In this document: positions 146 through 37,973 of the stretch, in pieces
How the letters are laid out: every line of letters starts with the position of its first letter
How positions within the stretch are numbered: the stretch's first letter is position 1
UHGV virus genome: UHGV-1354231
Reading direction: 5' to 3' (one strand)
From: a virus
Length of the DNA stretch: 39,909 nucleotides
Program-made: the position numbers and the translations under genes
The notes under the pieces: generated by a model
What the model was told of the DNA's origin: nothing
The model's database searches: none
Seen by the model: the letters and a program-made list of their open reading frames with translations, nothing else

Positions 146-542
146 CGCTAAAAAGGATGAAAAAGGTCTTCCTAAAATTCCGCAGCATTTAGGGGCTCAG
201 GGGAAGTACTGGTTCAGGCGAATGGCGGAAGAGCTGAATGCGGAAGGGATCATTTCTCAGCTTGATGCGCGTGCGCTCGAGTTGCTGGTGGAAGCCTACA
301 CCGAATATCGGCATCACTGCGAAACACTCGATGTTGAGGGGTATACCTACCGCACGGAAACGCAGAGCGGTGATGTACTGATTAAGGCGCACCCCGCGGC
401 GGCAATGAAAGCGGATGCCTGGAAGCGGATCCGGGCAATGCTTGCAGAGTTTGGTATGTCACCGGCAAGCCGGGCTAAAGTAAATATCGCCGGACCGGAT
501 GATGTTGATCCGCTGGCGGAGCTTTTAAAAGCGAGAGACTGA
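129..542 (+). CDS. Phage terminase small subunit (P27-like); reading frame is open upstream to window start and in frame with the gpM fragment
   Basis: Translation matches P27-type small terminase as recalled; GTG start at 129 lacks an obvious SD; stop overlaps TerL start. Confidence 0.75.
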   Translation: MASAKTAKKDEKGLPKIPQHLGAQGKYWFRRMAEELNAEGIISQLDARALELLVEAYTEYRHHCETLDVEGYTYRTETQSGDVLIKAHPAAAMKADAWKRIRAMLAEFGMSPASRAKVNIAGPDDVDPLAELLKARD

Positions 543-4279: not shown

Positions 4280-5497
4280 ATGAAACTTCATGAGATGAAG
4301 CAAAAACGAAACACCATTGCAAAGGATATGCGTGCACTGCATGAAAAAATTGGTGATAACGCATGGACTGATGAGCAACGGGCAGAGTGGAACAGGGCGA
4401 AAGCTGAGCTGGATGCGCTGGATGAGCAAATCGCCCGTGAAGAAGAGTTGCGCCGTCAGGATCAGGCATATGTGGATGAGTCCGGGCCGGAAGAGCGCCA
4501 GAATAATGAGGCGGAGAACGGGAAAAAGGCGGTGGAAGAGAAGCGCGCTGCGGCATTTAACCGTTTTCTGCGTGCCGGATTTGCAGAACTGAATGCTGAA
4601 GAGCGTAATCTGATGCGTGAACTGCGGGCTCAGAGTGTAACAACGGATTCTCAGGGCGGATATACGGTGCCCACGCAGATGCGTAACAAAATCATTGACA
4701 CCATGAAGGCTTATGGCGGGATTGCCAGTGTGGCGCAACTTCTGACCACATCAACCGGGCAGGATATCACCTGGTCAACGTCTGATGGCACGACTGAAGA
4801 GGGCGAACTGCTGGCGGAAAATACAGCCGCAACGGAACAGGATGTGACGTTCGGGACCGCTATTCTGGGGGCTAAAAAGCTGTCATCAAAAATAATTCGT
4901 GTGTCCAATGAGCTGCTCCAGGACAGTGGGGTGGATATTGAATCTTATCTGGCAAACCGTATTGCCCAGCGTATTGGTCGTGGAGAGGCAAAATATCTGG
5001 TTCAGGGGACCGGAACGGGATCACCGTTACAGCCAAAAGGGCTGGCAGCGTCGGTGACGGGAACCATCCAGACTGCAGCCTCTGCCGCTTTCACCTGGAA
5101 AGAAATGAATGCCCTGAAACATGCCATTGATCCGGCATATCGTGGTGGGCCGAAATACCGCTGGGCATTCAATGATGCCACATTGCAGACTATTGAAGAG
5201 ATGGAGGATGGGCAGAAACGCCCGTTATGGCTGCCGGATATTGCAGGCGGTACGCCGGCTACTGTGCTGGGGATCCCTTATGTTATTGATCAGGCTATTG
5301 ACGGGATTGGTACCGGAAAAAAATTCATTTTCCTGGGGGATTTCAACCGCTTTATCATTCGCCGCGTTACTTATATGGAACTGAAACGTCTGGTTGAGCG
5401 TTATGCTGAGTTTGATCAGGTGGCATTTCTGGCTTTCCATCGTTTTGACTGTGTGCTGGAAGATGTGGCAGCCATCAAGGCGCTCACTGGCAAATAA
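4280..5497 (+). CDS. Major capsid protein (HK97 fold)
   Basis: 405-aa ORF following protease; strong terminator immediately downstream. Confidence 0.85.
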   Translation: MKLHEMKQKRNTIAKDMRALHEKIGDNAWTDEQRAEWNRAKAELDALDEQIAREEELRRQDQAYVDESGPEERQNNEAENGKKAVEEKRAAAFNRFLRAGFAELNAEERNLMRELRAQSVTTDSQGGYTVPTQMRNKIIDTMKAYGGIASVAQLLTTSTGQDITWSTSDGTTEEGELLAENTAATEQDVTFGTAILGAKKLSSKIIRVSNELLQDSGVDIESYLANRIAQRIGRGEAKYLVQGTGTGSPLQPKGLAASVTGTIQTAASAAFTWKEMNALKHAIDPAYRGGPKYRWAFNDATLQTIEEMEDGQKRPLWLPDIAGGTPATVLGIPYVIDQAIDGIGTGKKFIFLGDFNRFIIRRVTYMELKRLVERYAEFDQVAFLAFHRFDCVLEDVAAIKALTGK

Positions 5498-5518
5498 CCA
5501 CTCGTTGTTCAGTTACAG

Positions 5519-5541
5519 ACCGCGCCGACGCGGTTTTTTTA
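5519..5541 (+). terminator. Rho-independent terminator after the major capsid gene
   Basis: ACCGCG-ccga-CGCGGT stem-loop followed by a 7-T run; a second GC hairpin (5543-5562) abuts the next SD. Confidence 0.6.
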
Positions 5542-5573
5542 TGCCCGCACAGTGTTGCGGGCAGGAGTTTCTG

Positions 5574-5891
5574 ATGGCAGCAATAGTGGAAAAACTCAGG
5601 GCGCAGTGCCGTATTGATACAGATGATGCAACTGATGATGAGTTACTGATGCTGTATTTCCGGGCTGCCTGCCGCAAGGCAGAAAATTTTATCAACCGTA
5701 AGCTTTATGAGGAGACGGTGCCGGAAGGTGATCCTGAAGGGGTGCTTATAGCTGATGATGTTTTGCTGGCGCTCATGTTGCTGGTCGGGCACTGGTACGA
5801 AAACCGGGAAAATTCCTCAGATGTCAGCAAGGCACCAGTCCCGTTTGGTTTTTCTTCTCTGCTGGAGCCTTATCGTTTTATTCCTTTGTAG
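5574..5891 (+). CDS. Head-tail connector protein (gp6-like); start trimmed from ORF 5394 to the ATG at 5574
   Basis: In-frame ATG at 5574 with GCAGGAG SD after the terminator; small acidic protein in the expected position. Confidence 0.65.
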   Translation: MAAIVEKLRAQCRIDTDDATDDELLMLYFRAACRKAENFINRKLYEETVPEGDPEGVLIADDVLLALMLLVGHWYENRENSSDVSKAPVPFGFSSLLEPYRFIPL

Positions 5892-5899
5892 GAGGAGAC

Positions 5900-6238
5900 A
5901 TGCAGGCGGGCAGATTACGTGATCGCGTAATTATTCTGAATGTCACCACCGCCCGCTCTCCGTCAGGGCATCCGGTGGAGACGGTGACGGAGGGAGCTAC
6001 CGTATGGGCAGAAGTTAAGGGTATCAGCGGGAGGGAGATAATCTCAGGCGGAGCAGAAACCGCTCAGGCTACGGTCAGAGTCTGGATGAGATTCCGGCGC
6101 GATGTGACAGCGACTTCACGTCTGAAAGTGCTGACCGGTGCATTTAAAGGGGCCATTCTGGGTATAGAAGGTCCACCAATACCGGATGCACGCGCTACCC
6201 GGCTTGAAATACTCTGCAGCCTGAAGGGGAATGTGTGA
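5900..6238 (+). CDS. Head closure / head-tail adaptor protein
   Basis: 112-aa ORF; synteny in HK97-like head modules. Confidence 0.6.
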   Translation: MQAGRLRDRVIILNVTTARSPSGHPVETVTEGATVWAEVKGISGREIISGGAETAQATVRVWMRFRRDVTATSRLKVLTGAFKGAILGIEGPPIPDARATRLEILCSLKGNV

Positions 6239-6684
6239 TGGATTTCAGTCTTGATTTTTCCGGCCTGGCGGATATTGCACGGGATCTGGAGACGCTCAGC
6301 AGGGCAGAAAACAATAAGGTTCTGCGCGATGCCACCCGTGCCGGTGCTGAAGTTATGCGGGATGCAGTTGTTGAACGTGCGCCGGAGCGAACCGGGAAAC
6401 TGAAGAAAAATGTGGTTGTTCTCACTCAGCGTTCAAAGCGTCGGGGGGAAATTATCTCGGGTGTCCACATTCGCGGACGGAACCTGCGAACCGGAAACAG
6501 TGATAACAGCATGAAAGCCAGCGATCCCCGAAATGCATTTTACTGGCGCTTTGTGGAGCTGGGAACGATAAACATGCCCGCGCATCCATTCATTCGCCCG
6601 GCTTTCGATACGACAGAGGAACTGGCAGCACGGATTGCCATACAGCGAATGAATCAGGCTATTGATGAGGTCTTAAGTAAATGA
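6235..6684 (+). CDS. HK97 gp10-family tail component
   Basis: 149-aa ORF overlapping its neighbours by 4 nt; synteny. Confidence 0.6.
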   Translation: MMDFSLDFSGLADIARDLETLSRAENNKVLRDATRAGAEVMRDAVVERAPERTGKLKKNVVVLTQRSKRRGEIISGVHIRGRNLRTGNSDNSMKASDPRNAFYWRFVELGTINMPAHPFIRPAFDTTEELAARIAIQRMNQAIDEVLSK

Positions 6685-7025
6685 GAGAGGCCACACTGTA
6701 TTCCCTGTTGTCTCAGCTGGCCGGAGGACAGGTTTATCCTTATGTGGTCCCACTGACGGAGGGAAAGCCTGCGGTATCTCCGCCGTGGCTGGTGTTTTCT
6801 GTGGTGTCTGACACGGCATCTGATGTGCTTGATGGGCAGGCTGAATCCAGAATTACCGTGCAGATCGATGTCTGGGCGACAGTACCTGATGACGCAGATA
6901 ATATTCGTGAGCAGGCGCTTGATGCGGTAAGAAAACTGGCACCCTCCGTTATTTCTAAAACGCAGGGTTATGATCCTGACTCCCGTCTGAGCAGAGCCAC
7001 GCTTGAATTTCAGGTAATAGCCTGA
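6681..7025 (+). CDS. Tail completion / neck protein (DUF3168-like)
   Basis: 114-aa ORF immediately upstream of the major tail gene; translationally coupled. Confidence 0.5.
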   Translation: MREATLYSLLSQLAGGQVYPYVVPLTEGKPAVSPPWLVFSVVSDTASDVLDGQAESRITVQIDVWATVPDDADNIREQALDAVRKLAPSVISKTQGYDPDSRLSRATLEFQVIA

Positions 7026-14138: not shown

Positions 14139-17100
14139 ATGGGCAAAGGAAGCAGTAAGGGGCATACCCCGCGCGAAGCGAAGGACAACCTGAAATCCAC
14201 GCAATTACTGAGTGTGATCGATGCCATCAGCGAAGGGCCGATTGAAGGTCCGGTGGATGGATTAAAAAGCGTGCTGCTGAACAGTACACCGGTGCTGGAC
14301 AGTGAGGGGAATACCAACATCTCCGGTGTTACGGTGGTGTTCCGGGCAGGTGAGCAGGAGCAGACACCGCCGGAGGGGTTTGAATCCTCCGGATCCGAGA
14401 CGGTGCTGGGTACGGAAGTGAAATACGACACGCCGATCACCCGCACCATCACGTCGGCAAACATCGACCGTCTGCGCTTTACCTTCGGCGTGCAGGCACT
14501 GGTGGAAACCACCTCAAAGGGGGACAGGAATCCGTCGGAAGTCCGCCTGCTGGTTCAGATACAACGTAACGGTGGCTGGGTGACGGAAAAAGACATCACC
14601 ATTAAAGGCAAAACCACCTCACAGTATCTGGCCTCGGTGGTGGTGGGTAACCTGCCGCCGCGCCCGTTCAATATCCGGATGCGCAGGATGACGCCGGACA
14701 GCACCACAGACCAGCTGCAGAACAAAACGCTCTGGTCGTCATACACCGAAATCATCGATGTGAAACAGTGCTACCCGAACACGGCACTGGTCGGCGTACA
14801 GGTGGATTCGGAGCAGTTCGGCAGCCAGCAGGTGAGCCGTAATTATCATCTTCGCGGGCGCATTCTGCAGGTGCCGTCGAACTATAACCCGCAGACGCGG
14901 CAATACAGCGGTATCTGGGACGGAACGTTAAAACCGGCATACAGCAACAACATGGCCTGGTGTCTGTGGGATATGCTGACCCATCCGCGCTACGGCATGG
15001 GGAAACGTCTCGGTGCGGCGGATGTGGACAAATGGGCGCTGTATGTCATCGGCCAGAATTGCGACCAGTCGGTGCCGGATGGCTTTGGTGGCACGGAGCC
15101 GCGCATCACCTGTAATGCCTGGCTGACCACACAGCGCAAGGCGTGGGATGTGCTCAGTGATTTCTGCTCGGCGATGCGCTGTATGCCGGTATGGAACGGG
15201 CAGACGCTGACGTTCGTGCAGGACCGACCATCAGATAAGGTGTGGACCTATAACCGCAGTAATGTGGTGATGCCGGATGATGGCGCGCCGTTCCGCTACA
15301 GCTTCAGCGCCCTGAAGGACCGCCATAATGCCGTTGAGGTGAACTGGATTGACCCGAACAACGGCTGGGAGACGGCGACAGAGCTTGTTGAAGATACGCA
15401 GGCCATTGCCCGTTACGGTCGTAACGTCACGAAGATGGATGCCTTTGGCTGTACCAGCCGGGGGCAGGCGCACCGCGCCGGGCTGTGGCTGATTAAAACG
15501 GAACTGCTGGAAACGCAGACCGTGGACTTCAGCGTGGGTGCGGAAGGGCTTCGCCATGTACCGGGGGATGTCATTGAAATCTGTGATGATGACTATGCGG
15601 GTATCAGCATCGGCGGGCGCGTGCTGGCGGTGAACAGCCAGACCCGGACGCTGACGCTCGACCGTGAAATCACGCTGCCATCCTCCGGTACCACGCTGAT
15701 AAGTCTGGTTGACGGAAGTGGCAATCCGGTCAGCGTGGAGGTTCAGTCCGTCACCGACGGCGTGAAGGTAAAAGTGAGCCGTGTTCCTGACGGTGTTGCT
15801 GAATACAGCGTATGGGGGCTGAAGCTGCCGACGCTGCGCCAGCGCCTGTTCCGCTGCGTGAGTATCCGTGAGAACGACGACGGCACGTATGCCATCACCG
15901 CCGTGCAGCATGTGCCGGAAAAAGAGGCCATCGTGGATAACGGGGCGCACTTTGACGGCGACCAGAGCGGCACGGTGAATGGTGTCACGCCGCCTGCGGT
16001 GCAGCACCTGGCCGCAGAAGTCACTGCAGACAGCGGGGAATATCAGGTGCTGGCGCGATGGGACACACCGAAGGTGGTGAAGGGCGTGAGCTTCCTGCTC
16101 CGTCTGACCGTAACAGCGGACGACGGCAGTGAGCGGCTGGTCAGCACGGCCCGGACGACGGAAACCACATACCGCTTCAGGCAACTGGCGCTGGGGCGTT
16201 ACACGCTGACGGTCCGGGCGGTAAATGCGTGGGGGCAGCAGGGCGATCCGGCATCGGTATCGTTCCGGATTGCGGCACCGGCAGCGCCTGTCACTATTGA
16301 ACTGATACCAGGGTATTTTCAGATAACAGCGGTCCCGAAACTGGCTGTATATGACCCGACGGTGCAGTTTGAGTTCTGGTTCTCGGAAAAGCGGATTATC
16401 GATATCAGGCAGGTTGAAACCAGCGCGCGTTATCTTGGTACGGCGCTGTACTGGATAGCCGCCAGTAGCAATATTAAGCCGGGTTATGATTATTACTTTT
16501 ATATCCGCAGCGTGAACACCGTTGGTAAATCGGCATTTGTGGAGGCCGTTGGTCGGGCGAGCGATGATGCGGAAGGTTATCTGAATTTTTATAAAGGGTT
16601 GATCAATAAAACGCATCTCGGCAAGGAACTGCTGGAAAACTTTGAGCTGACGGAAGATAACGCCAGCAAACTGGAGGAGTTTTCGAAAGAGTGGAAGGAC
16701 GCCAACGATAAATGGAATGCCATGTGGGGCGTCAAAATTGAGCAGACCAAAGACGGCAAACATTATGTCGCGGGGCTTGGCCTCAGCATGGAGGATACGG
16801 AGGAAGGCAAACTGAGCCAGTTCCTGGTTGCCGCTAACCGTATCGCGTTTATTGACCCGGCAAACGGGAATGAAACGCCGATGTTTGTGGCGCAGGGCAA
16901 CCAGATATTCATGAACGACGTGTTCCTGAAGCGCCTGACGGCCCCCACCATTACCAGCGGCGGTAATCCTCCGGCATTTTCCCTGACACCGGACGGGCGG
17001 CTGACGGCGAAAAATGCCGATATCAGCGGTAACGTGAATGCGAACTCCGGGACGCTCAACAACGTCACGATTAACGAGAACTGCCGGGTTCTGGGAAAAC

Positions 17101-17534
17101 TGTCCGCGAACCAGATTGAAGGCGATCTCGTTAAAACAGTGGGCAAAGCTTTCCCCCGTGACTCCCGGGCACCGGAGCGGTGGCCATCAGGAACCATTAC
17201 CGTCAGGGTTTATGACGATCAGCCGTTTGACCGGCAGATTGTTATTCCGGCGGTGGCATTCAGCGGCGCTAAACATGAGAAAGAGCATACTGATATTTAC
17301 TCCTCATGCCGTCTGATAGTGCGGAAAAACGGTGCTGAAATTTATAACCGTACCGCGCTGGATAATACGCTGATTTACAGTGGTGTTATTGATATGCCTG
17401 CCGGTCACGGTCACATGACACTGGAGTTTTCGGTGTCAGCATGGCTGGTAAATGGCTGGTATCCCACAGCAAGTATCAGCGATTTGCTGGTTGTGGTGAT
17501 GAAGAAAGCCACTGCAGGCATCACGATTAGCTGA
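14139..17534 (+). CDS. J: Tail tip / host specificity protein J
   Basis: 1131-aa ORF; size and position match lambda gpJ. Confidence 0.9.
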
Positions 17535-17553
17535 ATTTTATAACCCAGATACG

Positions 17554-17578
17554 GGCGCCAGAAATGGCGCCTTTTTTA
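17554..17578 (+). terminator. Rho-independent terminator after J
   Basis: GGCGCC-agaaat-GGCGCC followed by a 6-T run. Confidence 0.65.
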
Positions 17579-17601: not shown

Positions 17602-18201
17602 ATGCGTAAATTATGTGCTGTTATTTTGTCCGCAGTAGTCTGGCAGGTCGCCGCTGCTACGCCAGCGAGTGCAGCAGAACATCAGTCCACGCTGAGCGCG
17701 GGGTATCTCCATGCCTCGACGAACGTTCCCGGTAGTGATGATCTGAACGGGATTAACGTGAAATACCGTTATGAGTTTACGGACGCGCTGGGGCTGATTA
17801 CGTCCTTCAGTTATGCCAATGCTGAGGATGAGCAAAAAACGCACTACAGCGATACCCGCTGGCATGAAGATTCCGTGCGTAACCGCTGGTTCAGCGTGAT
17901 GGCGGGGCCGTCTGTACGCGTGAATGAATGGTTCAGCGCGTATGCGATGGTGGGTGTGGCTTACAGCCGTGTGTCGACTTTCTCCGGGGATTATCTCCGC
18001 GTAACTGACAACAAGGGGAAAACGCACGATGTGCTGACCGGAAGTGATGACGGTCGCCACAGCAACACGTCTCTGGCGTGGGGGGCTGGCGTGCAGTTTA
18101 ACCCGACCGAATCCGTGGCCATTGATATTGCTTATGAAGGCTCCGGTAGTGGTGACTGGCGCACTGACGGTTTCATCGTGGGTGTCGGTTATAAGTTCTG
18201 A
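17602..18201 (+). CDS. lom: Outer membrane protein, Ail/Lom family
   Basis: 199-aa ORF with N-terminal signal peptide, beta-barrel-like alternation, C-terminal aromatic residue; position between J and stf. Confidence 0.85.
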   Translation: MRKLCAVILSAVVWQVAAATPASAAEHQSTLSAGYLHASTNVPGSDDLNGINVKYRYEFTDALGLITSFSYANAEDEQKTHYSDTRWHEDSVRNRWFSVMAGPSVRVNEWFSAYAMVGVAYSRVSTFSGDYLRVTDNKGKTHDVLTGSDDGRHSNTSLAWGAGVQFNPTESVAIDIAYEGSGSGDWRTDGFIVGVGYKF

Positions 18202-18227: not shown

Positions 18228-18255
18228 AGCCCGCCGGTTCAGGCGGGCTTTTTTG
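18228..18255 (+). terminator. Rho-independent terminator after lom
   Basis: AGCCCGCC-ggttca-GGCGGGCT followed by a T-run. Confidence 0.65.
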
Positions 18256-18259
18256 TGGA

Positions 18260-20332
18260 GTGGATATGGCAGCAGTAAAAATCTCAGGTGTGCTGAAAGA
18301 TGGTGCGGGAAAACCAATACAGAACTGCACTATTCAACTGAAGGCAAAGCGTAACAGCACCACGGTACTGGTGAACACGGTGGCCTCTGAAAATCCGGAT
18401 GAAGCCGGGCGTTACAGCATGGATGTTGAGTATGGCCAGTACAGCGTCACCCTGCTGGTTGAAGGTTTTCCACCTTCACATGCCGGGACCATTACCGTCT
18501 ATGAAGGTTCCAGACCAGGTACGCTGAATGATTTTCTCGGTGCCATGACGGAGGATGATGTTCGTCCGGAGGCACTGCGCCGTTTTGAGCTGATGGTGAA
18601 TGAAGTGGCACGTCATGCCGGAGCGTCATCACAGAGTGCAGCGGCGGCAAAGAAATCCGAAACGGCAGCGACATCATCGAAGAACGCGGCGAAAACCTCA
18701 GAAACGAATGCAGCTAACAGCGCACAGGCGGCAGCGGCCTCGCAGACTGCATCGGCAAACTCCGCGACAGCAGCCAAAAAATCAGAAACCAGCGCGAAAA
18801 ATAGCGAGACAGCCACAAAGGCCAGCGAAAAAAACGCAAAATCCAGCCAGACGGCAGCGAAAACCAGTGAGACGAATGCCAAAGACAGTGAAGCCAACGC
18901 AAAGGTGAGCGAAACAGCGGCGGCGAACTCGGCGAAAGCATCGGCAGCAAGCCAGACGGCAGCAAAAGCAAGTGAAGATGCTGCCAGAGAATACGCAAAC
19001 CAGACAGCAGAGCCGTACAGATATGTTTTACAGCCGCTGCCGGATGTGTGGATACCCTTTAATGATTCGCTGGATATGATTACGGGCTATTCTCCGGGTT
19101 ATAAAAAAGTGAAGATTGGTGATAATGTGGTTCAGGTTGCCAGTGATAAACAGGTTAATTTCAGTCGCGCATCAACGGCAACATATATCAACAAATCTGG
19201 CGAACTGAAAACGGCGGAAATTAATGAGCCACGATTTGAGTGTGATGGCCTGCTTATTGAGGGGCAAAGAACGAACTTCTTCCAGAACAGTACAGACCCT
19301 TCGAAGTGGAATAAGTCAACTTCACTGGACGTTACAGAAACAGGCACAGATAGTTTCGGGTTTAATTATGGCCGGTTTGTCGTACAGGATTCGATTGTTG
19401 GTACAAGTAAAGCGCATACCATTATCGGGCTGTATTCGAGTACCGGAGGGGTTGATACTTCAGGGGACGAAAAGCATGTAACTATATCCTGTCGGGTAAA
19501 AAGTGAAGTTGATAATATCGCCGTTCGTATTTTATTTGAACATTATGATGGGGAGGTAAGGACATCAATAGGAGCAGCAAACCTGAACCTTACCACCCGC
19601 ATAATTAGCAAGACAGGTCAGACAAGCCGTGTTACAGCAAGGTCTGTTAAGGATGATGCAACTGGCTGGATATTTTTTGAGGCTACATTAAAAGCAGATA
19701 CAACAGAAAATACGGTTGGTGGTTTTGTCCAGTATTCTCCGGATACAGGGCAGATGGTTGCATCAGGGGATTATCTCGATGTAACCACTCCACAGATTGA
19801 GGCTGGTACAGGCGCATCATCTTTTATTGTTACGGGGACGGCACCGGTAACGCGGGCAAGCGATATGGTTACAGTTCCGATTAAGAATAATCTTTATAAT
19901 CTTCCTTTTACGGTTCTTTGTGAGGTACATAAGAACTGGTATAAAACGCCAAATGCAGCACCGCGTGTTTTTGACACATACCGGCATCAGGCAGATGCGG
20001 GGATCGTAATGGGGTTTGGTTCATCAGGTGGGTACGACGGTTTTCCGTATTGCGATATAGGTGGTTCAGACCGACGAATAAATGAAAATGCCGGGCTGGA
20101 AAAAATGCTTATTGGTATGCGGGTAAAGTCCGAACGGTCCACATGTGTAGTCAGTAACGGTAAGTTAAGCAGCGAAACTAAAACCAAATGGGAATATATC
20201 CGGAGTACAGCAACCATTCGCATTGGTGGACAAACTACAGCAGGATTACGCCATTTATTTGGGCATGTGAGGAATTTTCGTCTCTGGCATAAAGAGCTAA
20301 CAGATGCGCAGCTTGGGGAGGTTGTGGAGTGA
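18260..20332 (+). CDS. stf: Side tail fiber protein (lambda Stf-like N-terminus, divergent C-terminal domain)
   Basis: N-terminus MAAVKISGVLKDG...GFPPSHAGTITVYEG resembles lambda Stf as recalled; Ala/Ser/Thr-rich repeat region; 690 aa. Confidence 0.8.
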   Translation: MDMAAVKISGVLKDGAGKPIQNCTIQLKAKRNSTTVLVNTVASENPDEAGRYSMDVEYGQYSVTLLVEGFPPSHAGTITVYEGSRPGTLNDFLGAMTEDDVRPEALRRFELMVNEVARHAGASSQSAAAAKKSETAATSSKNAAKTSETNAANSAQAAAASQTASANSATAAKKSETSAKNSETATKASEKNAKSSQTAAKTSETNAKDSEANAKVSETAAANSAKASAASQTAAKASEDAAREYANQTAEPYRYVLQPLPDVWIPFNDSLDMITGYSPGYKKVKIGDNVVQVASDKQVNFSRASTATYINKSGELKTAEINEPRFECDGLLIEGQRTNFFQNSTDPSKWNKSTSLDVTETGTDSFGFNYGRFVVQDSIVGTSKAHTIIGLYSSTGGVDTSGDEKHVTISCRVKSEVDNIAVRILFEHYDGEVRTSIGAANLNLTTRIISKTGQTSRVTARSVKDDATGWIFFEATLKADTTENTVGGFVQYSPDTGQMVASGDYLDVTTPQIEAGTGASSFIVTGTAPVTRASDMVTVPIKNNLYNLPFTVLCEVHKNWYKTPNAAPRVFDTYRHQADAGIVMGFGSSGGYDGFPYCDIGGSDRRINENAGLEKMLIGMRVKSERSTCVVSNGKLSSETKTKWEYIRSTATIRIGGQTTAGLRHLFGHVRNFRLWHKELTDAQLGEVVE

Positions 20333-20607
20333 GAGATTTCACGTTGCGTTTCAGTGATAAAGCAGATTTCAGGGCATTTCTCAGGAAACTTAACTGGGAA
20401 GAGGACGAAGAGCTGCAGAATGCCGTTCTGGTTGATGAGATTGGTTTTACGTTCAGGGAGACAGATGTTTCTGATGACGGAGAACCAGAATACACGCGAA
20501 ACGAAGGGTACTTTGTTAATATCCGTCTTCTTGACGATGGATTTGATGATTCCGTGTTCCGTGAGTGGGTGGTTACACCAGAGCGCCCGCTCAGGGAGTG
20601 GTTTTAA
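20329..20607 (+). CDS. Hypothetical acidic 92-aa protein coupled to stf (candidate fiber chaperone)
   Basis: GTG start overlaps the stf stop (GTGA); no family recognised. Confidence 0.45.
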   Translation: MRDFTLRFSDKADFRAFLRKLNWEEDEELQNAVLVDEIGFTFRETDVSDDGEPEYTRNEGYFVNIRLLDDGFDDSVFREWVVTPERPLREWF

Positions 20608-20616
20608 GGATAGCAG

Positions 20617-20904
20617 ATGGATATCACGTCGATACTTCATGCGCTTTGTGCCGTAGCGGTGCAGGTACTGGCTGGTCTTTTTACCGGAAACTGGGCTTAC
20701 GGGGCGATAGCCGGTTGTACGTTCTTCATTGCTCGTGAACATACCCAGGCAGAATATCGCTGGATTGAAATGTTCGGGCATGGCAAGCGAATGAATATGC
20801 CGTGGTGGGGCGGTTTTGATCCGCGCGCGTGGGATGTAGCAAGCCTGATGGATTTTGCTGTGCCGGTGGTGGCGTGTCTGCTGATCTGGATGTTGATCCG
20901 TTAA
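20617..20904 (+). CDS. Hypothetical small membrane protein (two predicted TM segments)
   Basis: 95-aa ORF with AAGGA SD; hydrophobic N- and C-terminal stretches; no family recognised. Confidence 0.45.
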   Translation: MDITSILHALCAVAVQVLAGLFTGNWAYGAIAGCTFFIAREHTQAEYRWIEMFGHGKRMNMPWWGGFDPRAWDVASLMDFAVPVVACLLIWMLIR

Positions 20905-21144
20905 ATATAAAAGCCGCAGTAACTTGCCATGATAGGATACTGCGGCTGGCTGGTTAACTTTCGATAGTGCGAGTATTGAATGATTTCCAGCCGTTACTGA
21001 TTTTATATAACGGCAGTGGAATTATTCAACACACAGGCAAAACACAGGCAAAACGGAATAAGCTGAGAAAAAAAGCGTGCTTTCCCAATCTGGGGCAAAT
21101 CACGTCTGAATGACACCTGAAAACAGGTGGTGGACTCAAGAAGG

Positions 21145-21256: not shown

Positions 21257-21318
21257 CGGTCTCGAAAACCGGAGTGGGGGCAACTCCACCGGGGGTTCAA
21301 ATCCCCCTCTCTCCGCCA
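21257..21318 (+). other. 3' ~62 nt of a tRNA-Ser(CGA) gene (anticodon stem to CCA); att core, not a complete tRNA
   Basis: CGGTCTCGAAAACCGGAG...GGGGGTTCAAATCCCCCTCTCTCCGCCA matches the enterobacterial serU-type tRNA 3' portion as recalled; no 5' acceptor/D-arm upstream. Confidence 0.75.
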
Positions 21319-21363
21319 AAATTCAATCACTTACACATCATTAAGTCAGTGACAAAAATCACA

Positions 21364-21397
21364 CTTGGAATTACTTGGAATATTTTCTTGGAATATT
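21364..21397 (+). repeat. Three tandem arm-type sites (CTTGGAAT(T/A)TT) overlapping the int 3' end
   Basis: Copies at 21364-21371, 21374-21384, 21387-21397. Confidence 0.6.
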
Positions 21398-22396
21398 TTC
21401 AGGTAACGGGACATCAAGTGTTGGTGAAACTTTAACCTTCCTGTCATAGATTAGCACTTGCCCTTCGGTTTTGTGACCAGAGAAAAGTTGCTTATCCCGG
21501 CTGCTTCCTTCATAGTCTGAAATTCCTTTCGCCTTCAGATCATGAAAGGTGAAGTCGGTTAAAATACCTGAAATTTTGCCTGCGCGATTTCTTGCATCTA
21601 CCCACATTTCGTTAAAGCCTTTGTACATATATCGGTTGCCGTATTGATTGCTGATCACATAGGCAGATTTTGGCAACTGTTTTGCTTTTTCGATCGCTGC
21701 CTGTAATCGTGGACTCCATGCTTTTATCTGTTTTTTTCCGGTTTTCCCTTGCTGGATGAATATCCCGTCGTTTCCAATCTGTTCCCATTTCAGCGATAAC
21801 ACATCGGAAACCCTCGCTGCACACAGATAGGCAATTTCCATTGCGATAAAAACAGGAAGAGGTGCAACGCTTAATACTGCCTGGTATTCTTTGTCGGTTA
21901 CATATCGTTCGCGGTTTTTGGCCTTGAATTTACTTACACCTGCACATGGGTTAGCCTTCACGTACCCTCGCTCATACCCCCAACTGTAAACACGGGACAT
22001 ACTGCTTTTTTCATGGTTGGCTTGCGTTTTACTCTGCTCCCCTCTTTTGTCCATGTATCGACGGATGTGTTCTGGTTTTATGGAATCCGCTGGTACCTTA
22101 CCGAATACGGCAAGCAACTTTTTTTGATGTTGCAGATAATCTTTTTGTGTTCTTGGACTAAGGTCACTGTAATAGGCGCTGGCGAGGAATTTTTCCCACA
22201 AGCGACCGAATGTCATTGCACGATCGCGATTATTTACAGTTTCCTCATACTTTTTCCATAAAGCAGCTAAACCATCCTTGATGGCGGTTAGTGTGACAGA
22301 TTCTCTGGATGTTGGTTTCCATACATAACTATATTTATTTGGGTATACATTTGGAGGTAATTTTTCGTGTTCAGGATTTTTCCTTCGTCTTCCCAT
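21371..22396 (-). CDS. int: Tyrosine integrase (lambda Int family)
   Basis: 341 aa; N-terminal MGRRR arm-binding-type start; FSGHK and HDLKAKG-like catalytic-region motifs; adjacent to att. Confidence 0.9.
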   Translation of the reverse strand: MGRRRKNPEHEKLPPNVYPNKYSYVWKPTSRESVTLTAIKDGLAALWKKYEETVNNRDRAMTFGRLWEKFLASAYYSDLSPRTQKDYLQHQKKLLAVFGKVPADSIKPEHIRRYMDKRGEQSKTQANHEKSSMSRVYSWGYERGYVKANPCAGVSKFKAKNRERYVTDKEYQAVLSVAPLPVFIAMEIAYLCAARVSDVLSLKWEQIGNDGIFIQQGKTGKKQIKAWSPRLQAAIEKAKQLPKSAYVISNQYGNRYMYKGFNEMWVDARNRAGKISGILTDFTFHDLKAKGISDYEGSSRDKQLFSGHKTEGQVLIYDRKVKVSPTLDVPLPENIPRKYSK

Positions 22397-22657: not shown

Positions 22658-25084
22658 TTAAAAATCAGCCTGACTCGGGATCAGTTTTTGCCAGATAGCT
22701 GAAACGTATTTTGCCTGGTAACGAGCGTCATCAAGTGCATTATGGCGCTCACCTTCGAATGGGATAGCAGTTCTGGCATCGAAGTCTATGGCTTTCCCCA
22801 GCTCAACGATTGTGCGTACATCGCGATCGTTGCAGTAGCGCCACGGGCAGGGGATACCCTGTCGTTCGTATGAACGGCGTAAAATCACGTTGTCGAAGTT
22901 GGCCCCATTACCCCAGACCTGAACAAAAAATTCACCGGAGTTTTCGTCGATAAATTCCCGCAATTGCAGTAGTGCATCATCTAACGGGATTTCATCGGTC
23001 ATAATGGCAGACTGCGCCTCACGTGATTGCTTCAGCCACCATTTAATGACGTCACGATCAATGACTCCGCCAGCAGTATCCAGATCGATGGTCTTGCTAA
23101 ATTCCGGTCCCATATCTCCGGTTTGTGGATCGAAAAATATTGCGCCTATTGAGATAATCGGGGCATCGGGATTTTTTCCCATGGTTTCAAGGTCGATCAT
23201 CAGATGAATCCCCGCTCTGCTGGTGGATGTGAGCTTATGATGACCATTCACCTTAATTAAGGGATCTGTCGCCTCGCCAGTTTTATTATCGCTGGCGTGA
23301 TGCTGATTGCCGCCAGGGTTCTCCTTGTGTGGATGTTCAGCGCCTCCCATTTCCTCCGGATCATTTTCCTGAACTTCAACCTGATTCTCTTCATCGAATG
23401 TTTCCTGGTATGTTGCGTCGCCCATCACCGCGCCACAATCAGGGCAGTTGTCGCCACCGCTCTGACCACAGGCGGTGCAGACTTTTTCCGGTTCCTGTTG
23501 CGCTACTGGTTTGGATTGTTTCGTTTCTGGCTCGTTTTGTAACGCATTTGGGCTGTTTTGTTCCGCTTTTTGGTCGTTCCGTTCCGATTCATGCTGGTTC
23601 TGGTTCACAGAATCGCGAGTCTGGATCCCCTTGACCCATTTCGGATCATTAGGGTCGCTAATCCCCTCAACAAATTCACCACGCGATACAGCAAGTAACT
23701 TATCGGCGTCAGGCTGGCTGATATTGGCTGCCTGCATAATTTTGTTTACTTCGTCAGCGGTGACTTTTACTTGGTTAGCGGAACTCACCTGCGACTGAGC
23801 GTTCTGGCAATGTTCAGTTGTATCCGGTTCCATTGTTTCAGTTGTTGCCTGTTCACCTGCCATTGCGTCAGATGGTTGTGGTTTTTCTTCCTCTGTTTCA
23901 CGTTCAGTAACCACCTCGCGGTTAATTTCTTCCAGGATATCTTTTTCCGGCGTATGCCGGGCAGCTGTGAGAGTTTCCTTGCTGGGGTTCTCGTGATCAG
24001 TTTCCGTCAAATAGGCGTTGATATACCCCTGAAGGCGTCCCGGGTAGTGATAAAATTCAGGGTGTGCGCTTCGGATAAGTGCAAAAATAGCGGCGCGGGA
24101 ATAGTCCAGAATACCCGGGGTTGCACGAAGTGCTGCGGACCATTCTTTGAACGGACTTTCTTTTTTTAGGACTACTTCTTTTGCGCGACGATAAACGCTG
24201 CCCGGAATTTCATAAATATTAAAATCCATCGGAAGTGTGGCTGCTGCAATCTCCACATCCAGTGTGTCGAGGGTGTGTACTAAATTCGGATTGCGATCGG
24301 TTTTGTTCCCACCGCCAGCATTAGCACCGGAAGCCGTGCGGGTGATGCGTGAAACACGATTTCCTTTCATCCACTCTTTTGTCAGCAGACCCCGATCAAT
24401 GTAGTCAGCGTCCAGGTATGCTTCGAAAAAAGCAGTTATTAGTCCCAGGTCTGAATTACCAGGATTAGGGAAAACTTTGTCAGTGTCACGAACCAGTTTG
24501 TGGAGGTCGCGAATCTCCAGCGAGTCGAGCAGACTGGTTTTATGCGAAATAGCCAGAGCAGTAACAGCCGGTAGTTCTTCAGCCCGTGCAATGTATAATG
24601 CCTGGAGTTCGTCGCGTGAAACGTGCGTTACTGGTTTTTCGCTGCCGTGTTGAGCAAGCCAACGAATGGGCAGTTCCTGACCGGAGACAGGCAGAAGCAT
24701 GCTCTCCTCAATCTCAGTCATGTCTTCGCCGTTGATGTTGGTATTGTCAGTGCTGGCTGGTTTGTCCTGAACAGAGGGGGAAGGGCCGATAAATGTCATT
24801 GTGATGCCATCTTTCCCGCCTTTTTCATAGCGGTTGCAGAATTCAGTATCAAACACGCCTTCTGGCGGAAGGTCGTCAACAACGGGCAAATTGACGCGGA
24901 CGGGTTTTTTAAAGTCGTCTTCATCATAATCGTTGTCATCCATTGCGGTAATGCAGCGGGAGATTGCAACAGATAATTTTTTTGCTGTAGTCCAGTAAAA
25001 ACCACCTTTAATTCCCAGGCGTTTTCTTACTTTGTCATTTTTTGCTTCGCAATATAGTGCAAATTCTTCTTTATCAGTGCTCAT
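22658..25084 (-). CDS. RecE-like prophage exonuclease: RecE-type N-terminal region and zinc ribbon fused to a DnaQ-like DEDDh 3'-5' exonuclease domain
   Basis: Long stretch resembling E. coli RecE N-terminal region as recalled; CxxC...CxxC ribbon; C-terminal MIDLETMG, FDNVIL and HNALDDA exo motifs. Confidence 0.7.
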   Translation of the reverse strand: MSTDKEEFALYCEAKNDKVRKRLGIKGGFYWTTAKKLSVAISRCITAMDDNDYDEDDFKKPVRVNLPVVDDLPPEGVFDTEFCNRYEKGGKDGITMTFIGPSPSVQDKPASTDNTNINGEDMTEIEESMLLPVSGQELPIRWLAQHGSEKPVTHVSRDELQALYIARAEELPAVTALAISHKTSLLDSLEIRDLHKLVRDTDKVFPNPGNSDLGLITAFFEAYLDADYIDRGLLTKEWMKGNRVSRITRTASGANAGGGNKTDRNPNLVHTLDTLDVEIAAATLPMDFNIYEIPGSVYRRAKEVVLKKESPFKEWSAALRATPGILDYSRAAIFALIRSAHPEFYHYPGRLQGYINAYLTETDHENPSKETLTAARHTPEKDILEEINREVVTERETEEEKPQPSDAMAGEQATTETMEPDTTEHCQNAQSQVSSANQVKVTADEVNKIMQAANISQPDADKLLAVSRGEFVEGISDPNDPKWVKGIQTRDSVNQNQHESERNDQKAEQNSPNALQNEPETKQSKPVAQQEPEKVCTACGQSGGDNCPDCGAVMGDATYQETFDEENQVEVQENDPEEMGGAEHPHKENPGGNQHHASDNKTGEATDPLIKVNGHHKLTSTSRAGIHLMIDLETMGKNPDAPIISIGAIFFDPQTGDMGPEFSKTIDLDTAGGVIDRDVIKWWLKQSREAQSAIMTDEIPLDDALLQLREFIDENSGEFFVQVWGNGANFDNVILRRSYERQGIPCPWRYCNDRDVRTIVELGKAIDFDARTAIPFEGERHNALDDARYQAKYVSAIWQKLIPSQADF

Positions 25085-32741: not shown

Positions 32742-32782
32742 GAGTAGATTATGCATGATGAATTTGATGGGTTTTGAATACT

Positions 32783-32808
32783 GCCGCCAACTATGGCGGC
32801 TTTATTTT
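32783..32808 (+). terminator. Rho-independent terminator upstream of the second small terminase
   Basis: GCCGCC-aactat-GGCGGC followed by TTTATTTT. Confidence 0.65.
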
Positions 32809-32815
32809 GCATGGT

Positions 32816-32844
32816 ACTATTACCACAACGGTAACTATTACCAC
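32816..32844 (+). repeat. Direct repeat ACTATTACCAC x2 (18-bp period) upstream of the second small terminase
   Basis: Copies at 32816-32826 and 32834-32844. Confidence 0.7.
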
Positions 32845-32851
32845 GGTGGTT

Positions 32852-33292
32852 ATGATGCCTGCTGAACCTAAAACCTATAAACGCAAATCAACGCAATTTA
32901 AGCCACTAACAGCAATGCAGGAGGCTTATTGCCAGTCATACATCAAAACGCCTGAAAACCAGACTCAGGCAGCGATTAACGCAGGATTCTCCCCAAATAC
33001 AGCGGCAGTTAAAGCCAGTGTCATGATGCGCGATGAACGCATTCAAAAACGGATTGCCGAGTTGATGGAGGAGCGCAACAAACGAATGCGCGTCAGTGCT
33101 GATTACGTTCTCATGCGCCTGGTGGAGATCGACCAGATGGACGTGATCGACATCCTCAACGACGATGGGAGCCTTAAACCAATCCGTGAGTGGCCGAAAA
33201 TCTGGCGCACTACGCTTAGTGGCTTTGATCTGTCATCGACCATCATGAACATGAACGAGGATTCGATAGAGACAATCCTACAAAAAAATTAA
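32852..33292 (+). CDS. Terminase small subunit of the second packaging module; probably truncated by a frameshift in an A7 tract
   Basis: HTH-like segment typical of small terminases; start taken at ATGATG 32852 after the terminator rather than ORF start 32774. Confidence 0.6.
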
Positions 33293-33445
33293 ATGGCCTG
33301 ACAAGGTGAAGAACCTTGAGCTGATTGGTAAGCATGTTGATGTCAACGCGTTCAAAGAACGTCTGGATGTTAATGTGAATGTGACAATTGCTGATCGCAT
33401 AGCAGCAGCCAGGAAGCGACTCAAAGAACGTCAGGATGGTAATCA

Positions 33446-34921
33446 GTGACAGATACAGCGTTATCTCCTGAAGAGCAGTTGATCGAGGATATTGCAGGGT
33501 TCACTCACGATCCGCTTGGCTATGCCCTCTATGCGTTCCCGTGGGGGGAAGAGGGGACTGAACTGGCACATGCTACCGGCCCACGTCAGTGGCAGGCTGA
33601 TGCGTTCCGAGAGATACGTGATCACCTGCAGAATCCAGAGACGCGCTATCAGCCGCTTATGCTGGCACGTGCTTCGGGTCACGGTATTGGTAAATCCGCA
33701 TTCATCTCAATGCTGATCAACTGGGGCATGTCCACTTGCGAGGATTGTAAGGTCGTGGTGACCGCCAACACCGACAACCAGCTACGAACGAAGACCTGGC
33801 CGGAAATTATCAAGTGGTCGAACCTTGCTATCACGAAAGACTGGTTTACCTGTACCGCTACCGCGATGTACAGCAATGACCCAGGGCACGACAAGCGATG
33901 GCGGGCTGACGCAATACCCTGGTCTGAGCACAACACTGAGGCATTCGCCGGACTACACAACGAGCGCAAACGCATCATCGTGGTATTCGATGAAGCGTCG
34001 AACATTGCCGATCTGGTGTGGGAGGTAGCAGAGGGTGCGCTGACGGACGAAGACACCGAAATCATCTGGGTGGCGTTCGGGAACCCGACGCGTAACACCG
34101 GGCGTTTCCGTGAATGTTTCCGCAAGTACAAACACCGCTGGAAGTGTGCGCAGATTGACAGCCGGACGGTGGAAGGCACTAACAAACAGCAGTTGCAGAA
34201 ATGGGTTGATGACTACGGGGAAGACAGCGACTTCGTTAAAATCCGTGTGCGCGGCATATTCCCTGATGCATCTGAATTGCAGTTTATCCCTACCGGTCTT
34301 ACTGACGAGGCAATGAAACGGGTGGTAACCGCTGCGCAGGTTGCACATGCTCCGGTGATAATCGGTGTTGACCCGGCATATTCAGGCGTTGATGACGCGG
34401 TGATATACCTGCGGCAGGGGCTACACAGTAAGGTGCTGTGGACTGGCAACAAGACTACCGACGATCTGATTATGGCGAAGCGTATCGCTGATTTTGAAGA
34501 CCTGTATCAGGCTGACGCAGTGTTCATCGACTTTGGTTACGGTACCGGTCTGAAGTCAATCGGTGACGGTTGGGGGCGCACATGGCAACTTGTTCCGTTC
34601 GGTGGCGCGTCTACTGACCCGCAGATGCTCAACAAGCGTGGGGAGATGTTCAACTCATGCAAGACATGGCTGAGGCTGGGCGGGATGCTTGATGACCAGG
34701 AAACAGCGGACGACCTGTCGGCGGCAGAGTACAAAGTTCGAGTGGACGGTAAAATCGTTATCGAACCGAAGGAAGATATCAAGGAGCGGCTTGGGCGTTC
34801 GCCGGGTAAAGGCGATGCGCTATTGCTGACGTTTGCTTTCCCTGTGTCGAAGCGTCTGCGAATTCCAGGTCAGCAGAACCAGCAAGGCAAGGCCATTACA
34901 GATTACGATCCCTATGCTTAA
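33446..34921 (+). CDS. Terminase large subunit (second packaging module)
   Basis: 491 aa; Walker A-like GHGIGKS, Walker B-like VVFDEAS, C-terminal RNaseH-like nuclease region. Confidence 0.85.
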
Positions 34922-35566: not shown

Positions 35567-35644
35567 TGGCGTGGCATGCAGGATTCGAACCTGACAACCA
35601 ACCGCTTAGAAGGCGGTTGCTCTGTCCAACTGAGCTAATGCCAC
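35567..35644 (-). tRNA. tRNA-Arg (anticodon UCU), phage-borne; T-stem reads with a one-base bulge
   Basis: Hand-folded cloverleaf: acceptor GTGGCAT/ATGCCAC, anticodon arm ACCGC-CTTCTAA-GCGGT, T-loop TTCGAAT, 3' GCCA; resembles argU as recalled. Confidence 0.7.
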
Positions 35645-36293: not shown

Positions 36294-37973
36294 ATGGCGG
36301 AAACAACTAAAGAGCGATTGAACAAACAGTTCGCACAACTTGAAAGCGAGCGTCAGTCGTTCGAGCCGCACTGGCGCGAGTTGAGTGATTACATCAACCC
36401 GCGTGGTTCCCGCTTTCTGACTTCTGAGGTCAACCGTAACGATCGACGCAATACACGCATTATTGATTCGACCGGGACTATGGCGGCGCGCACTCTCGCC
36501 AGCGGCATGATGTCAGGCATCACAAGCCCCGCGCGTCCGTGGTTTCGCCTGGCTACGCCAGATCCTGAAATGATGGATTATGGCCCTGTTAAGTTGTGGC
36601 TTGAGGCCGTGCAGAACCGCATGAACGATATGTTCAATAAGTCGAATCTCTATCAGTCGCTGCCGCAGTTATATGGAAGCCTCGGCACATACAGCACCGG
36701 TGCAATGGCGGTACTGGAGGATGATGAGGACATCATTCGCACAATGCCATTCCCGATAGGCAGTTACTACCTAGCTAACTCACCTCGTGGCAGTGTGGAC
36801 ACCTGTTTTCGCAAGTTCTCTATGACTGTTCGTCAGCTTGTTCAGGAGTTCGGGCTAAATAACGTCAGCGAATCCGTAAAAAGCATGTGGGAAAGCGGCA
36901 CCTACGAGAAGTGGATTGAAGTGATGCATTCGGTTTACCCGAACATTGACCGCGATACATCGAAGCTGGATAGCAAGAACAAGCCATTCAAATCGGTTTA
37001 TTACGAGGTTGGTGGCGATAACGACAAGTTGTTGCGTGAGTCCGGATTCGATGAGTTTCCAATTATGGCTCCGCGCTGGGAAGTTAACGGCGAAGATGTT
37101 TATGGATCATCATGCCCGGGTATGCTGGCGCTTGGACCTGTTAAGGCATTGCAGCTTCTCCAGAAGCGCAAGTCGCAGTTGATTGATAAAGCCACCAATC
37201 CGCCGATGATTGCTCCGACTTCCCTCAAGAATCAGCGTGCCTCCCTTCTTCCTGGCGACATCACGTATATCGATCAGATTACTGGTCAGGATAGTTTCAG
37301 GCCTGCTTATCTGGTTAACCCCAGTACAGCAGATTTGGTGGCAGACATTCAGGACACTCGTCAAATCATTAACAGCGCCTACTTTGTCGATCTGTTCATG
37401 ATGTTGCAGAACATCAATACCCGCTCGATGCCTGTTGAAGCGGTGATCGAAATGAAAGAAGAAAAACTTCTGATGTTGGGGCCGGTTCTGGAGCGTCTGA
37501 ACGACGAATGTCTTAATCCTCTCATTGACCGCGCTTTCTCGATGATGGTGCGTAAAAACATGCTGCCGCCACCACCTGACGCGATGGAAGGTATGCCCCT
37601 GAAGGTCGAATACATTTCCGTCATGGCTCAGGCGCAGAAGTCTATCGGCCTGTCCAGTCTGGCATCCACGGTCAACTTCATTGGTCAACTTGCGCAAGCG
37701 AAACCAGAAGCTCTCGACAAACTCAACGTTGATCAGGCGATCGATGCATTCGCTGATATGTCCGGAGTGTCTCCAACCGTCATTGTTCCGCAGGAACAGG
37801 TTGAGCAGGCTCGCCAGCAACGGGCACAGCAACAACAGCAGCAACAAATGATGGCGATGGGGATGGCGGCGGCACAGGGTGCCAAGACGCTAAGCGAAGC
37901 TAAAACTTCGGATCCGAGTGTTTTGTCAGCTATGGCGAATGCATTTAGTGGTCAGGGTGGGCAATCACAATGA
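36294..37973 (+). CDS. Portal / head-tail connector protein (podovirus T7-type)
   Basis: 559 aa; Gln-rich C-terminus QQQQQQQMMAMGMAAAQGA resembles the T7 gp8 C-terminus as recalled; followed by scaffold and capsid genes. Confidence 0.75.
   Translation: MAETTKERLNKQFAQLESERQSFEPHWRELSDYINPRGSRFLTSEVNRNDRRNTRIIDSTGTMAARTLASGMMSGITSPARPWFRLATPDPEMMDYGPVKLWLEAVQNRMNDMFNKSNLYQSLPQLYGSLGTYSTGAMAVLEDDEDIIRTMPFPIGSYYLANSPRGSVDTCFRKFSMTVRQLVQEFGLNNVSESVKSMWESGTYEKWIEVMHSVYPNIDRDTSKLDSKNKPFKSVYYEVGGDNDKLLRESGFDEFPIMAPRWEVNGEDVYGSSCPGMLALGPVKALQLLQKRKSQLIDKATNPPMIAPTSLKNQRASLLPGDITYIDQITGQDSFRPAYLVNPSTADLVADIQDTRQIINSAYFVDLFMMLQNINTRSMPVEAVIEMKEEKLLMLGPVLERLNDECLNPLIDRAFSMMVRKNMLPPPPDAMEGMPLKVEYISVMAQAQKSIGLSSLASTVNFIGQLAQAKPEALDKLNVDQAIDAFADMSGVSPTVIVPQEQVEQARQQRAQQQQQQQMMAMGMAAAQGAKTLSEAKTSDPSVLSAMANAFSGQGGQSQ

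Follow-up and report, generated by a model that had tools for sequence, protein, structure and literature searches.

A side tail fibre gene, its small partner gene and a widespread membrane-protein gene that close the late region of a lambdoid prophage in UHGV-1354231

The virus genome UHGV-1354231 was analyzed as one stretch of 39,909 nucleotides (hereafter the window), which consists of two tandem prophages. At the right end of the first, two small genes, orf92 and orf95, lie directly behind the side tail fibre gene (stf). This prophage is represented by the late region of a lambdoid phage, with terminase genes followed by portal, protease, capsid and tail genes (Table 1). The stop codon of stf (TGA, 20330–20332) shared a 4-nt GTGA overlap with the GTG start of orf92 at 20329, while the ATG of orf95 at 20617 was located 9 nt past the orf92 stop, and Shine–Dalgarno (SD) sequences read directly from the DNA preceded both small genes. 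An earlier sequence-only reading had described an acidic 92-aa protein coupled to the stf stop by GTGA, and its coordinates and overlap were as described. The same holds for the separate SD assigned to the 95-aa protein.

Table 1. Features of UHGV-1354231 and their positions in the window, in order along the sequence.
Feature	Position	Strand	Remarks
Terminase genes, first prophage	129–2299		
J	14139–17534		
Intrinsic terminator downstream of J	17553–17572		called by the terminator scan
lom	17602–18201		
Intrinsic terminator downstream of lom	18228–18249	+	8-bp stem with 7 GC pairs, then T run; upstream boundary of the stf–orf92–orf95 unit
stf	18260–20332	+	side tail fibre, 690 aa; phage_tail_N attachment domain, Ala/Ser-rich shaft, lectin-like distal module at about residues 290–689
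SD of orf92	20315–20321	+	GGGGAGG; within the 3' end of stf, 7 nt before the GTG
orf92	20329–20607	+	92 aa; acidic, predicted cytoplasmic alpha/beta protein; fibre-specific partner, putative trans chaperone or accessory subunit
SD of orf95	20606–20610	+	AAGGA; overlaps the orf92 stop codon, 6 nt before the ATG
orf95	20617–20904	+	95 aa; membrane protein with three predicted helices; final gene of the late tail-fibre unit
Stable hairpin without U tract, downstream of orf95	20912–20947	+	-23.2 kcal/mol, z = -3.3; 0/200 shuffles fold as well
tRNA-like 3' fragment	21258–21319		
Integrase, second prophage	21371–22396	-	excisionase next
808-aa early-region protein, second prophage	22658–25084	-	
Terminase, second prophage	32774–34921		
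tRNA-Arg(TCT) gene	35567–35644	-	
Portal, second prophage	36294–37973		

Both products matched protein families over their full length. Residues 1–92 of orf92 aligned to positions 1–92 of the 92 in phrog_1361 (E = 1.1e-40) and residues 1–95 of orf95 to positions 1–95 of the 97 in phrog_1443 (E = 2.6e-57), both of them PHROGs of unknown function. Owing to these matches and to the many relatives described below, orf92 and orf95 are evidently real genes and not chance open reading frames (ORFs). The statement that neither protein belongs to a recognizable family thus holds for curated families but not for PHROGs. For orf92 there was no Pfam or NCBIfam match below E = 0.07, and for orf95 there was none in either collection. 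Neither protein had a match in PDB, where orf95 was searched as a profile, a PADLOC-DB 2.0 family at E ≤ 1, or a match to the GtrA/GtrB or acyltransferase-3 families of O-antigen modification. Literature on the FIGfam and PHROG identifiers, the phage 21 genome, the mEp phages and genes downstream of tailspikes contained no study of either family. The pair is real, ordinary in frequency and uncharacterized; describing it as a moron is wrong, while the proposal of a fibre chaperone is reasonable.

The two genes had been taken for a two-gene cassette in a moron slot behind the fibre gene, a view that the surrounding signals contradict. Between 17400 and 21500, a simple consensus scan of the + strand, which could miss weak promoters, detected nothing resembling a sigma-70 promoter. 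It located two intrinsic terminators, after J and after lom, and they bracket lom and not orf92–orf95; lom is thus the terminator-flanked moron, and stf, orf92 and orf95 form a coupled run downstream of it. With a clean terminator on either side, lom has the classic moron layout, unlike orf92–orf95, for which no promoter or terminator of their own was found, orf95 also showing no variable presence among similar phages. The hairpin downstream of orf95 has no T run and was not called by the terminator scan; it is possibly the end of the late transcript or an RNA-stabilizing element.

Gene order in related phages and E. coli prophages was constant, with the fibre gene, an orf92-like gene, sometimes a second fibre gene, and then orf95. 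The cargo beyond orf95 differed among phages and was mostly encoded on the opposite strand: ev243 and 2G7b carried a methyltransferase and OmpT there, phage 21 and strain AF16 had sitABCD, mEp460 had DinI and an integrase, and E. coli ETEC4079 had a retron-type reverse transcriptase together with a SLATT protein. This fixed order, followed by varied genes, implies that the variable cargo slot starts after orf95 and that orf95 is the last gene of the backbone. Other strains carried sitABCD, an S-adenosylmethionine-dependent methyltransferase, an alpha/beta hydrolase with OmpT, or DinI in the slot. The two ETEC4079 genes, directly after orf95 on the opposite strand (locus L254, 3378–5277), look like a retron-type defence system.

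If orf95 were nevertheless an autonomous moron, it would be expressed while the prophage is repressed and would serve lysogenic conversion or superinfection exclusion. It does occupy the last position before att, which in other phages is held by gtrABC, oac, neuO or cor, and prophages are known to modify receptor glycans (PMC8787464, PMC11990801). In the P22-like phage Gally, where the orf95 homologue follows a P22-type tailspike gene, a terminator lies after the tailspike gene and a weak promoter-like site before the homologue, although such sites in Gally were no commoner than in shuffled sequence. The single-gene chromosomal orthologues described below would also suggest a stand-alone benefit. 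However, nothing like a promoter was found on the + strand in the region scanned, the preceding gene ends 9–13 nt before orf95 or overlaps it, and orf95 stays constant while the true cargo varies beyond it. In addition, the homologue in siphovirus HC6 ends the structural module, and on a ~160-kb Salmonella contig a homologue is located between two tailspike genes; by our reading, the baseplate and tailspike genes of this contig resemble those of virulent Ackermannviridae phages. An autonomous moron is thus distinctly unlikely. Superinfection exclusion or lysogenic conversion as such, to which the earlier reading had pointed, is a possible function of orf95. Since no promoter of its own was detectable, since cargo begins after it and since chromosomal orthologues exist, orf95 is phage backbone and not a moron. 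It also occurs apart from orf92, following other fibres or tailspikes (as on the ~160-kb contig) and as a chromosomal gene, which is a further departure from the two-gene cassette. The sequence, compared with related phages, instead shows stf, orf92 and orf95 as a single, translationally coupled unit that ends the late operon of the lambdoid prophage.

Domain searches with the stf product revealed PF08400 (E = 4e-67), the GTA head-spike-fibre domain NF048003 at residues 332–533, phrog_1419 and phrog_5939. Neither an intramolecular chaperone of the Peptidase_S74 type nor a Tfa-type match or partner was detected for the fibre in the Pfam and NCBIfam scans. The distal part of the fibre (about residues 170–689) was common to all fibres found with orf92, whereas the fibre of the Stx2k phage, which has no orf92, had only its N-terminal 146 residues in common with stf and a different C-terminus. 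The same distal module was also present in prophages of Comamonas, Pantoea and Chelativorans, again beside orf92-type genes.

The protein encoded by orf92 has a pI of 4.26, with 24 Asp and Glu against 12 Lys and Arg residues. Its AlphaFold2 model (predicted local distance difference test score, pLDDT, 86) had a beta-alpha-alpha-beta4 fold, a small alpha/beta sandwich for which no informative structural neighbour was found. Relatives were detected by tblastn in 196 phage records, and the allele of the window occurred in 365 of 5426 complete E. coli genomes. In every context inspected, which included lambdoid phages, the T1-like phage KarlJaspers, the Dhillonvirus KarlBarth, the Nonagvirus JenP1, the T5-like phage EC104 and the rV5-like phage CarlMeissner, the gene came next behind a lateral or side tail fibre gene, in most cases overlapping it by 1 or 4 nt. 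Its divergence tracked that of its fibre: compared with the window, fibre and orf92 identities were 59 and 64% in phage 21, 44 and 50% in JenP1, and 45 and 45% in KarlJaspers. The gene is thus found directly downstream of the fibre gene and is co-inherited with one type of distal domain.

Remote homologues were recovered beside the distal module in Comamonas, Pantoea and Chelativorans, either as proteins of 95–102 aa or as the N-terminal domain of a protein of 171–188 aa. A direct search with a hidden Markov model of orf92 missed those of Comamonas and Chelativorans. The profile–profile comparison with hhalign gave a probability of 22% in a first run and 91% once the Chelativorans sequence had been added (90.9%, E = 1e-6, 82 columns). 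On this pattern of linkage, orf92 is to all appearances an obligate partner of the lectin-like distal fibre module.

In its genomic behaviour orf92 is similar to lambda Tfa, Mu U and P2 G (Caudo_TAP), being a small gene directly downstream of and coupled to a fibre gene and specific for a distal domain. Nevertheless, orf92 gave no match to the lambda Tfa/Caudo_TAP profile and no Pfam match, in agreement with the earlier statement that it is unrelated in sequence to Tfa; moreover, its product is about half the size, and its fold has no informative neighbour. It therefore behaves like the assembly proteins of the Tfa/U/G type, yet is not a member of their family. Because the fibre has neither an intramolecular chaperone domain nor a Tfa, orf92 would be expected to help the distal module to fold or trimerize, or to stay on it as an accessory subunit, and a trans-acting fibre chaperone or accessory subunit is the most likely identity for its product. 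The chaperone suggested earlier is thus borne out as far as a fibre-specific partner is concerned, found only with this distal module and diverging in step with it, while the chaperone role itself is a reasonable suggestion from genomic context. The label "putative lateral tail fiber chaperone" in KarlJaspers belongs to the gene after the orf92 homologue and not to the homologue. An identification with LtfC of T5-like phages was considered and rejected, as LtfC is a 140-aa collar protein encoded upstream of ltfA, and the fibres of DT57C carry S74 chaperone domains.

A serious rival arises from the second fibre-like gene that often follows the orf92 homologue, as in 2G7b, JenP1, EC104, KarlBarth, CarlMeissner, UTI89 and ETEC4079. 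The product could then be a structural adaptor or distal subunit, either a docking piece for the second receptor-binding protein of a branched fibre or the actual adhesin, like gp38 of some T-even phages. Branched lateral fibres are indeed documented in T5-like phages (PMC4728585, PMC10713586), although those of the DT57C type are built of other proteins (LtfA and LtfB with S74 domains and the LtfC collar) and have no orf92 equivalent. Moreover, no second fibre gene follows orf92 in the window, in ev243, in mEp460 or in phage 21. An adaptor or adhesin is accordingly rather unlikely, and a chaperone or accessory subunit is preferred for orf92.

The protein encoded by orf95 is hydrophobic (grand average of hydropathy, +0.58). 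The sequence-only reading had predicted two transmembrane segments; a hydropathy scan revealed two strong segments and a weaker middle one, but the AlphaFold2 model (pLDDT 93) had three helices, at residues 4–23, 26–53 and 74–94. For the orthologue of phage 21, the GenBank note records two transmembrane domains by TMHMM with both termini inside, which would make the conserved loop periplasmic. Among 117 family members, the loop at residues 40–73 contained a mean of 5.3 Lys and Arg residues, compared with about 1 in the other three extramembrane segments together, and by the positive-inside rule this would place the conserved loop in the cytoplasm. No lipobox was found, and the hydrophobic helices span the whole protein, unlike in the lipoproteins Cor and Llp.

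The family comprised at least 560 clusters at 90% identity and 453 at 50%, the latter all stand-alone proteins of about 70–146 aa. Invariant or nearly invariant positions in the alignment were H8, R40, E41, Q44, A45, E46, Y47, R48, W49, R58, P62, G65, G66, W72, D79 and P83, which define the motif RE-x-x-QAEYRW ... MPWWGGFD-x-R-x-W; R40, E41, E46, W72 and P83 were kept even in members of 30–45% identity. The invariant polar residues (R40, E41, Q44, E46, Y47, R48, R58 and D79) suggest a specific site for binding or catalysis. Among the 5426 complete E. coli genomes, 1887 (35%) carried orf95, the median copy number being two and the highest seven. The protein of the window was 89.5% identical to that of phage 21, against only 59% for the fibres. 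The one gene in a similar position that has been tested, hyp24 of phage Kapi1, had no effect on lipopolysaccharide; it is not a homologue of orf95, and its candidacy as an orthologue was rejected because it is a 34-aa ORF on the opposite strand.

Comparative analysis of genomic neighbourhoods revealed a recurrent position for the family. In ev243, mEp460 and phage 21, orf95 followed stf and orf92, and in the Stx2k phage it came after a different fibre. Further homologues were located after a fibre assembly gene in the Halomonas myovirus phiHAP-1, after a J-like protein gene in Comamonas, after a tailspike gene in Desulfovibrio and, in one context, after a GDSL-esterase tailspike gene, while in an Aeromonas P2-like prophage the homologue overlapped the fibre gene. 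Scanning one genome per species gave 70 loci from gamma-, beta- and alphaproteobacteria and Desulfovibrio, and when upstream genes were sampled across genera, six out of ten encoded fibres or tailspikes, while one was for a phage protein without known function.

Environmental viral contigs showed the same arrangement. An earlier scan had yielded only near-identical E. coli prophages, whereas one that started from distant members of the family gave 80 loci, 71 of which entered the analysis. A large ORF on the same strand ended upstream of the homologue at -8 to +240 nt in 71/71, mostly within 31 nt. The pectate-lyase-like tailspike domain PF12708 was carried by 41 of these 71 ORFs, 40 matched a tail-spike PHROG, and others had Beta_helix, P22 Head_binding or Peptidase_S74/G2 domains; at least 41 are beta-helix tailspikes. 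Taken together, genes of the orf95 family directly follow the last receptor-binding gene in sipho-, myo- and podoviruses, for the most part beside genes for glycan-targeting tailspikes and fibres, and the family is old, widespread and linked to receptor-binding genes across proteobacterial classes.

The distal fibre module was accompanied by both an orf92-type and an orf95-type protein in Escherichia, Pantoea, Comamonas and Chelativorans. In Chelativorans sp. the two small genes stand in the order opposite to that of E. coli and all three genes overlap by 4 nt (locus L122, 4526–6590), so that the trio is conserved in an alphaproteobacterium despite rearrangement. In Comamonas nitrativorans and Pigmentiphaga humi, the orf95 homologue was found between a fibre-like gene and the Avd (bAvd) gene of a diversity-generating retroelement (loci L128 and L129, ~4785–6690), a placement inside a mutagenic receptor-binding cassette.

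The family also had members without a phage neighbourhood. In several species of Aeromonas, a syntenic single-copy orthologue was located between the Pirin and RIO1 kinase genes with no phage genes nearby, and five Leclercia genomes had another common chromosomal context. At three further loci the NAD-dependent DNA ligase gene (ligA) was immediately upstream of the homologue. The Aeromonas rivipollensis orthologue (locus L095, 6001–6309; also L104, L112–L114) lies near two paralogous lipid A acyltransferase genes.

These distributions constrain what the membrane protein could do. Retention as a single chromosomal gene suggests that it is useful on its own, and the link to receptor-binding genes across tail types and bacterial classes suggests a role tied to adsorption, entry or a surface-glycan pathway. 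As orf95 is far more conserved than its fibres, it can be neither a tip-specific chaperone nor the mimic of one receptor, and its partner must be invariant: a component of the host envelope or a lipid carrier, and not the receptor-binding tip. The protein would then be made together with the receptor-binding protein, being neither a part of the virion nor independently expressed cargo, and would change the envelope of the infected or lysogenic cell. By blocking entry or interfering with the surface-glycan receptor pathway, it would serve a protective, exclusion-type function. Such envelope protection is our leading guess for orf95, possible though somewhat short of probable, and the reading as a whole (a coupled unit, orf92 as the fibre partner and orf95 in envelope protection) is likewise tentative.

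In a more specific mechanism, orf95 would be a small enzyme or inhibitor of the membrane, with its invariant Arg/Glu-rich loop targeting a conserved, lipid-linked stage in surface-polysaccharide assembly (undecaprenyl-phosphate carriers or initiating transferases) or a conserved component of DNA entry, the family being a hitherto unrecognized and near-universal companion of glycan-targeting receptor-binding proteins. This is a quite improbable proposal as it stands. If it were true, the phage would spare its own fibres and progeny from trapping, or exclude rivals, and in the cellular orthologues this activity would serve envelope homeostasis.

The main rival to envelope protection is a lysis-related membrane protein, namely a holin-like protein, an antiholin or a lysis-timing factor made late with the fibres. 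Precedents for the position exist, as the T4 holin gene t follows genes 37–38 and T7 gene 17.5 follows gene 17. The size and hydrophobic pattern of orf95, which is small with three hydrophobic helices and a short basic C-terminus, are those of a class I holin, and the gene belongs to a late operon. Furthermore, in Acidovorax and Comamonas prophages the homologue was directly followed by a small holin-like ORF, an endolysin of the signal-anchor-release (SAR) type and Rz with an embedded Rz1, Phage_lysozyme was found downstream in 4/49 genomic loci, and weak pesticin- or lysozyme-like matches occurred in 10/112 downstream ORFs scanned from environmental contigs. The holin-like ORF of the Acidovorax and Comamonas cassettes (loci L125, 5998–7700, and L127, 5920–7600) encodes either a 67-aa protein that has two hydrophobic segments or a 105-aa protein that has a single one, the endolysin has an N-terminal SAR-like segment, and Rz1 is an embedded lipoprotein ORF.

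Nevertheless, the lysis cassettes inspected already hold their own holin candidates, three environmental contigs encode GTA_holin_3TM proteins downstream, and adjacency to a lysozyme concerns a minority of relatives, in which another holin candidate exists. Tail modules often simply precede lysis modules. Phage 21 keeps an orf95 orthologue even though its classical lysis cassette (S21/R21/Rz) is far from this gene. No endolysin was found near orf95 in the window, and the protein had no holin match in Pfam or PHROG. A 34-residue loop with polar residues invariant across proteobacterial classes, together with long-lived chromosomal orthologues, would also be atypical of holins. A role in lysis is therefore unlikely, and envelope protection remains the preferred function for orf95.

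Class I holins (lambda S105, P22 gp13) and the 37–38–t order of T4 are similar to orf95 in encoding about 100 aa with three hydrophobic helices, in late expression and, at times, in a place directly upstream of an endolysin cassette; orf95 differs in having no holin family match, a long invariant polar loop, separate holin candidates alongside and retention as a chromosomal gene. Llp of T5, Cor of phi80, N15 and HK022, GtrABC of P22, Oac of Sf6 and NeuO of CUS-3 are, like orf95, envelope proteins encoded beside receptor-binding genes. However, Llp and Cor are lipoproteins directed at a single outer-membrane receptor, whereas orf95 encodes an integral membrane protein without a lipobox, and Gtr, Oac and NeuO are recognizable transferases, a fold that orf95 does not have. 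Unlike all of these, orf95 does not vary with the receptor-binding protein, and no promoter of its own was detected. T4 Imm, P22 SieA and HK97 gp15 are encoded by genes that have a narrow distribution and are not known to be linked to receptor-binding genes, whereas orf95 has cellular orthologues and is conserved across classes. These three are small integral inner-membrane phage proteins as orf95 is predicted to be, without detected sequence similarity to it, and protect the cell from incoming phage DNA (PMC10883804, PMC3594210). The resemblance of orf95 to receptor-blocking, receptor-modifying and inner-membrane exclusion genes is one of genomic logic only, with no common sequence, lipobox or enzyme fold.

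Both genes have practical implications. Phage engineers swap receptor-binding modules to retarget host range, and the lectin-type fibre tip is very common, occurring in lambdoid, T1-like, T5-like and rV5-like phages and in Queuovirinae; if orf92-type proteins are obligatory partners of this tip, any transfer of the tip must include them. For orf95, the link between a conserved membrane protein and receptor-binding genes could uncover a general step in infection, exclusion or release that is absent from model phages such as lambda PaPa and T7. The orf95 family is directly testable, being small, with clear invariant residues and cellular orthologues.

Beyond orf95, about 350 nt of non-coding DNA lead to a tRNA-like 3' fragment (GGTCTCGAAAACCGG...CTCTCCGCCA), which ARAGORN did not call as a gene and which we read as probably the 3' half of a tRNA-Ser gene. 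Next come the integrase and excisionase genes of the second prophage, and its repressor, replication genes, terminase and portal take up the rest of the window. Its early region encodes a protein of 808 aa, much larger than the products of usual lambdoid early genes. The middle of this protein is long, acidic and of low complexity; it also has a CxxC...CxxC cluster, and its C-terminal domain resembles a DnaQ-type exonuclease when judged by eye. The tRNA-Arg(TCT) gene is unusually placed for a phage tRNA: it lies on the opposite strand, in the interval separating this prophage's large terminase gene from its portal gene.

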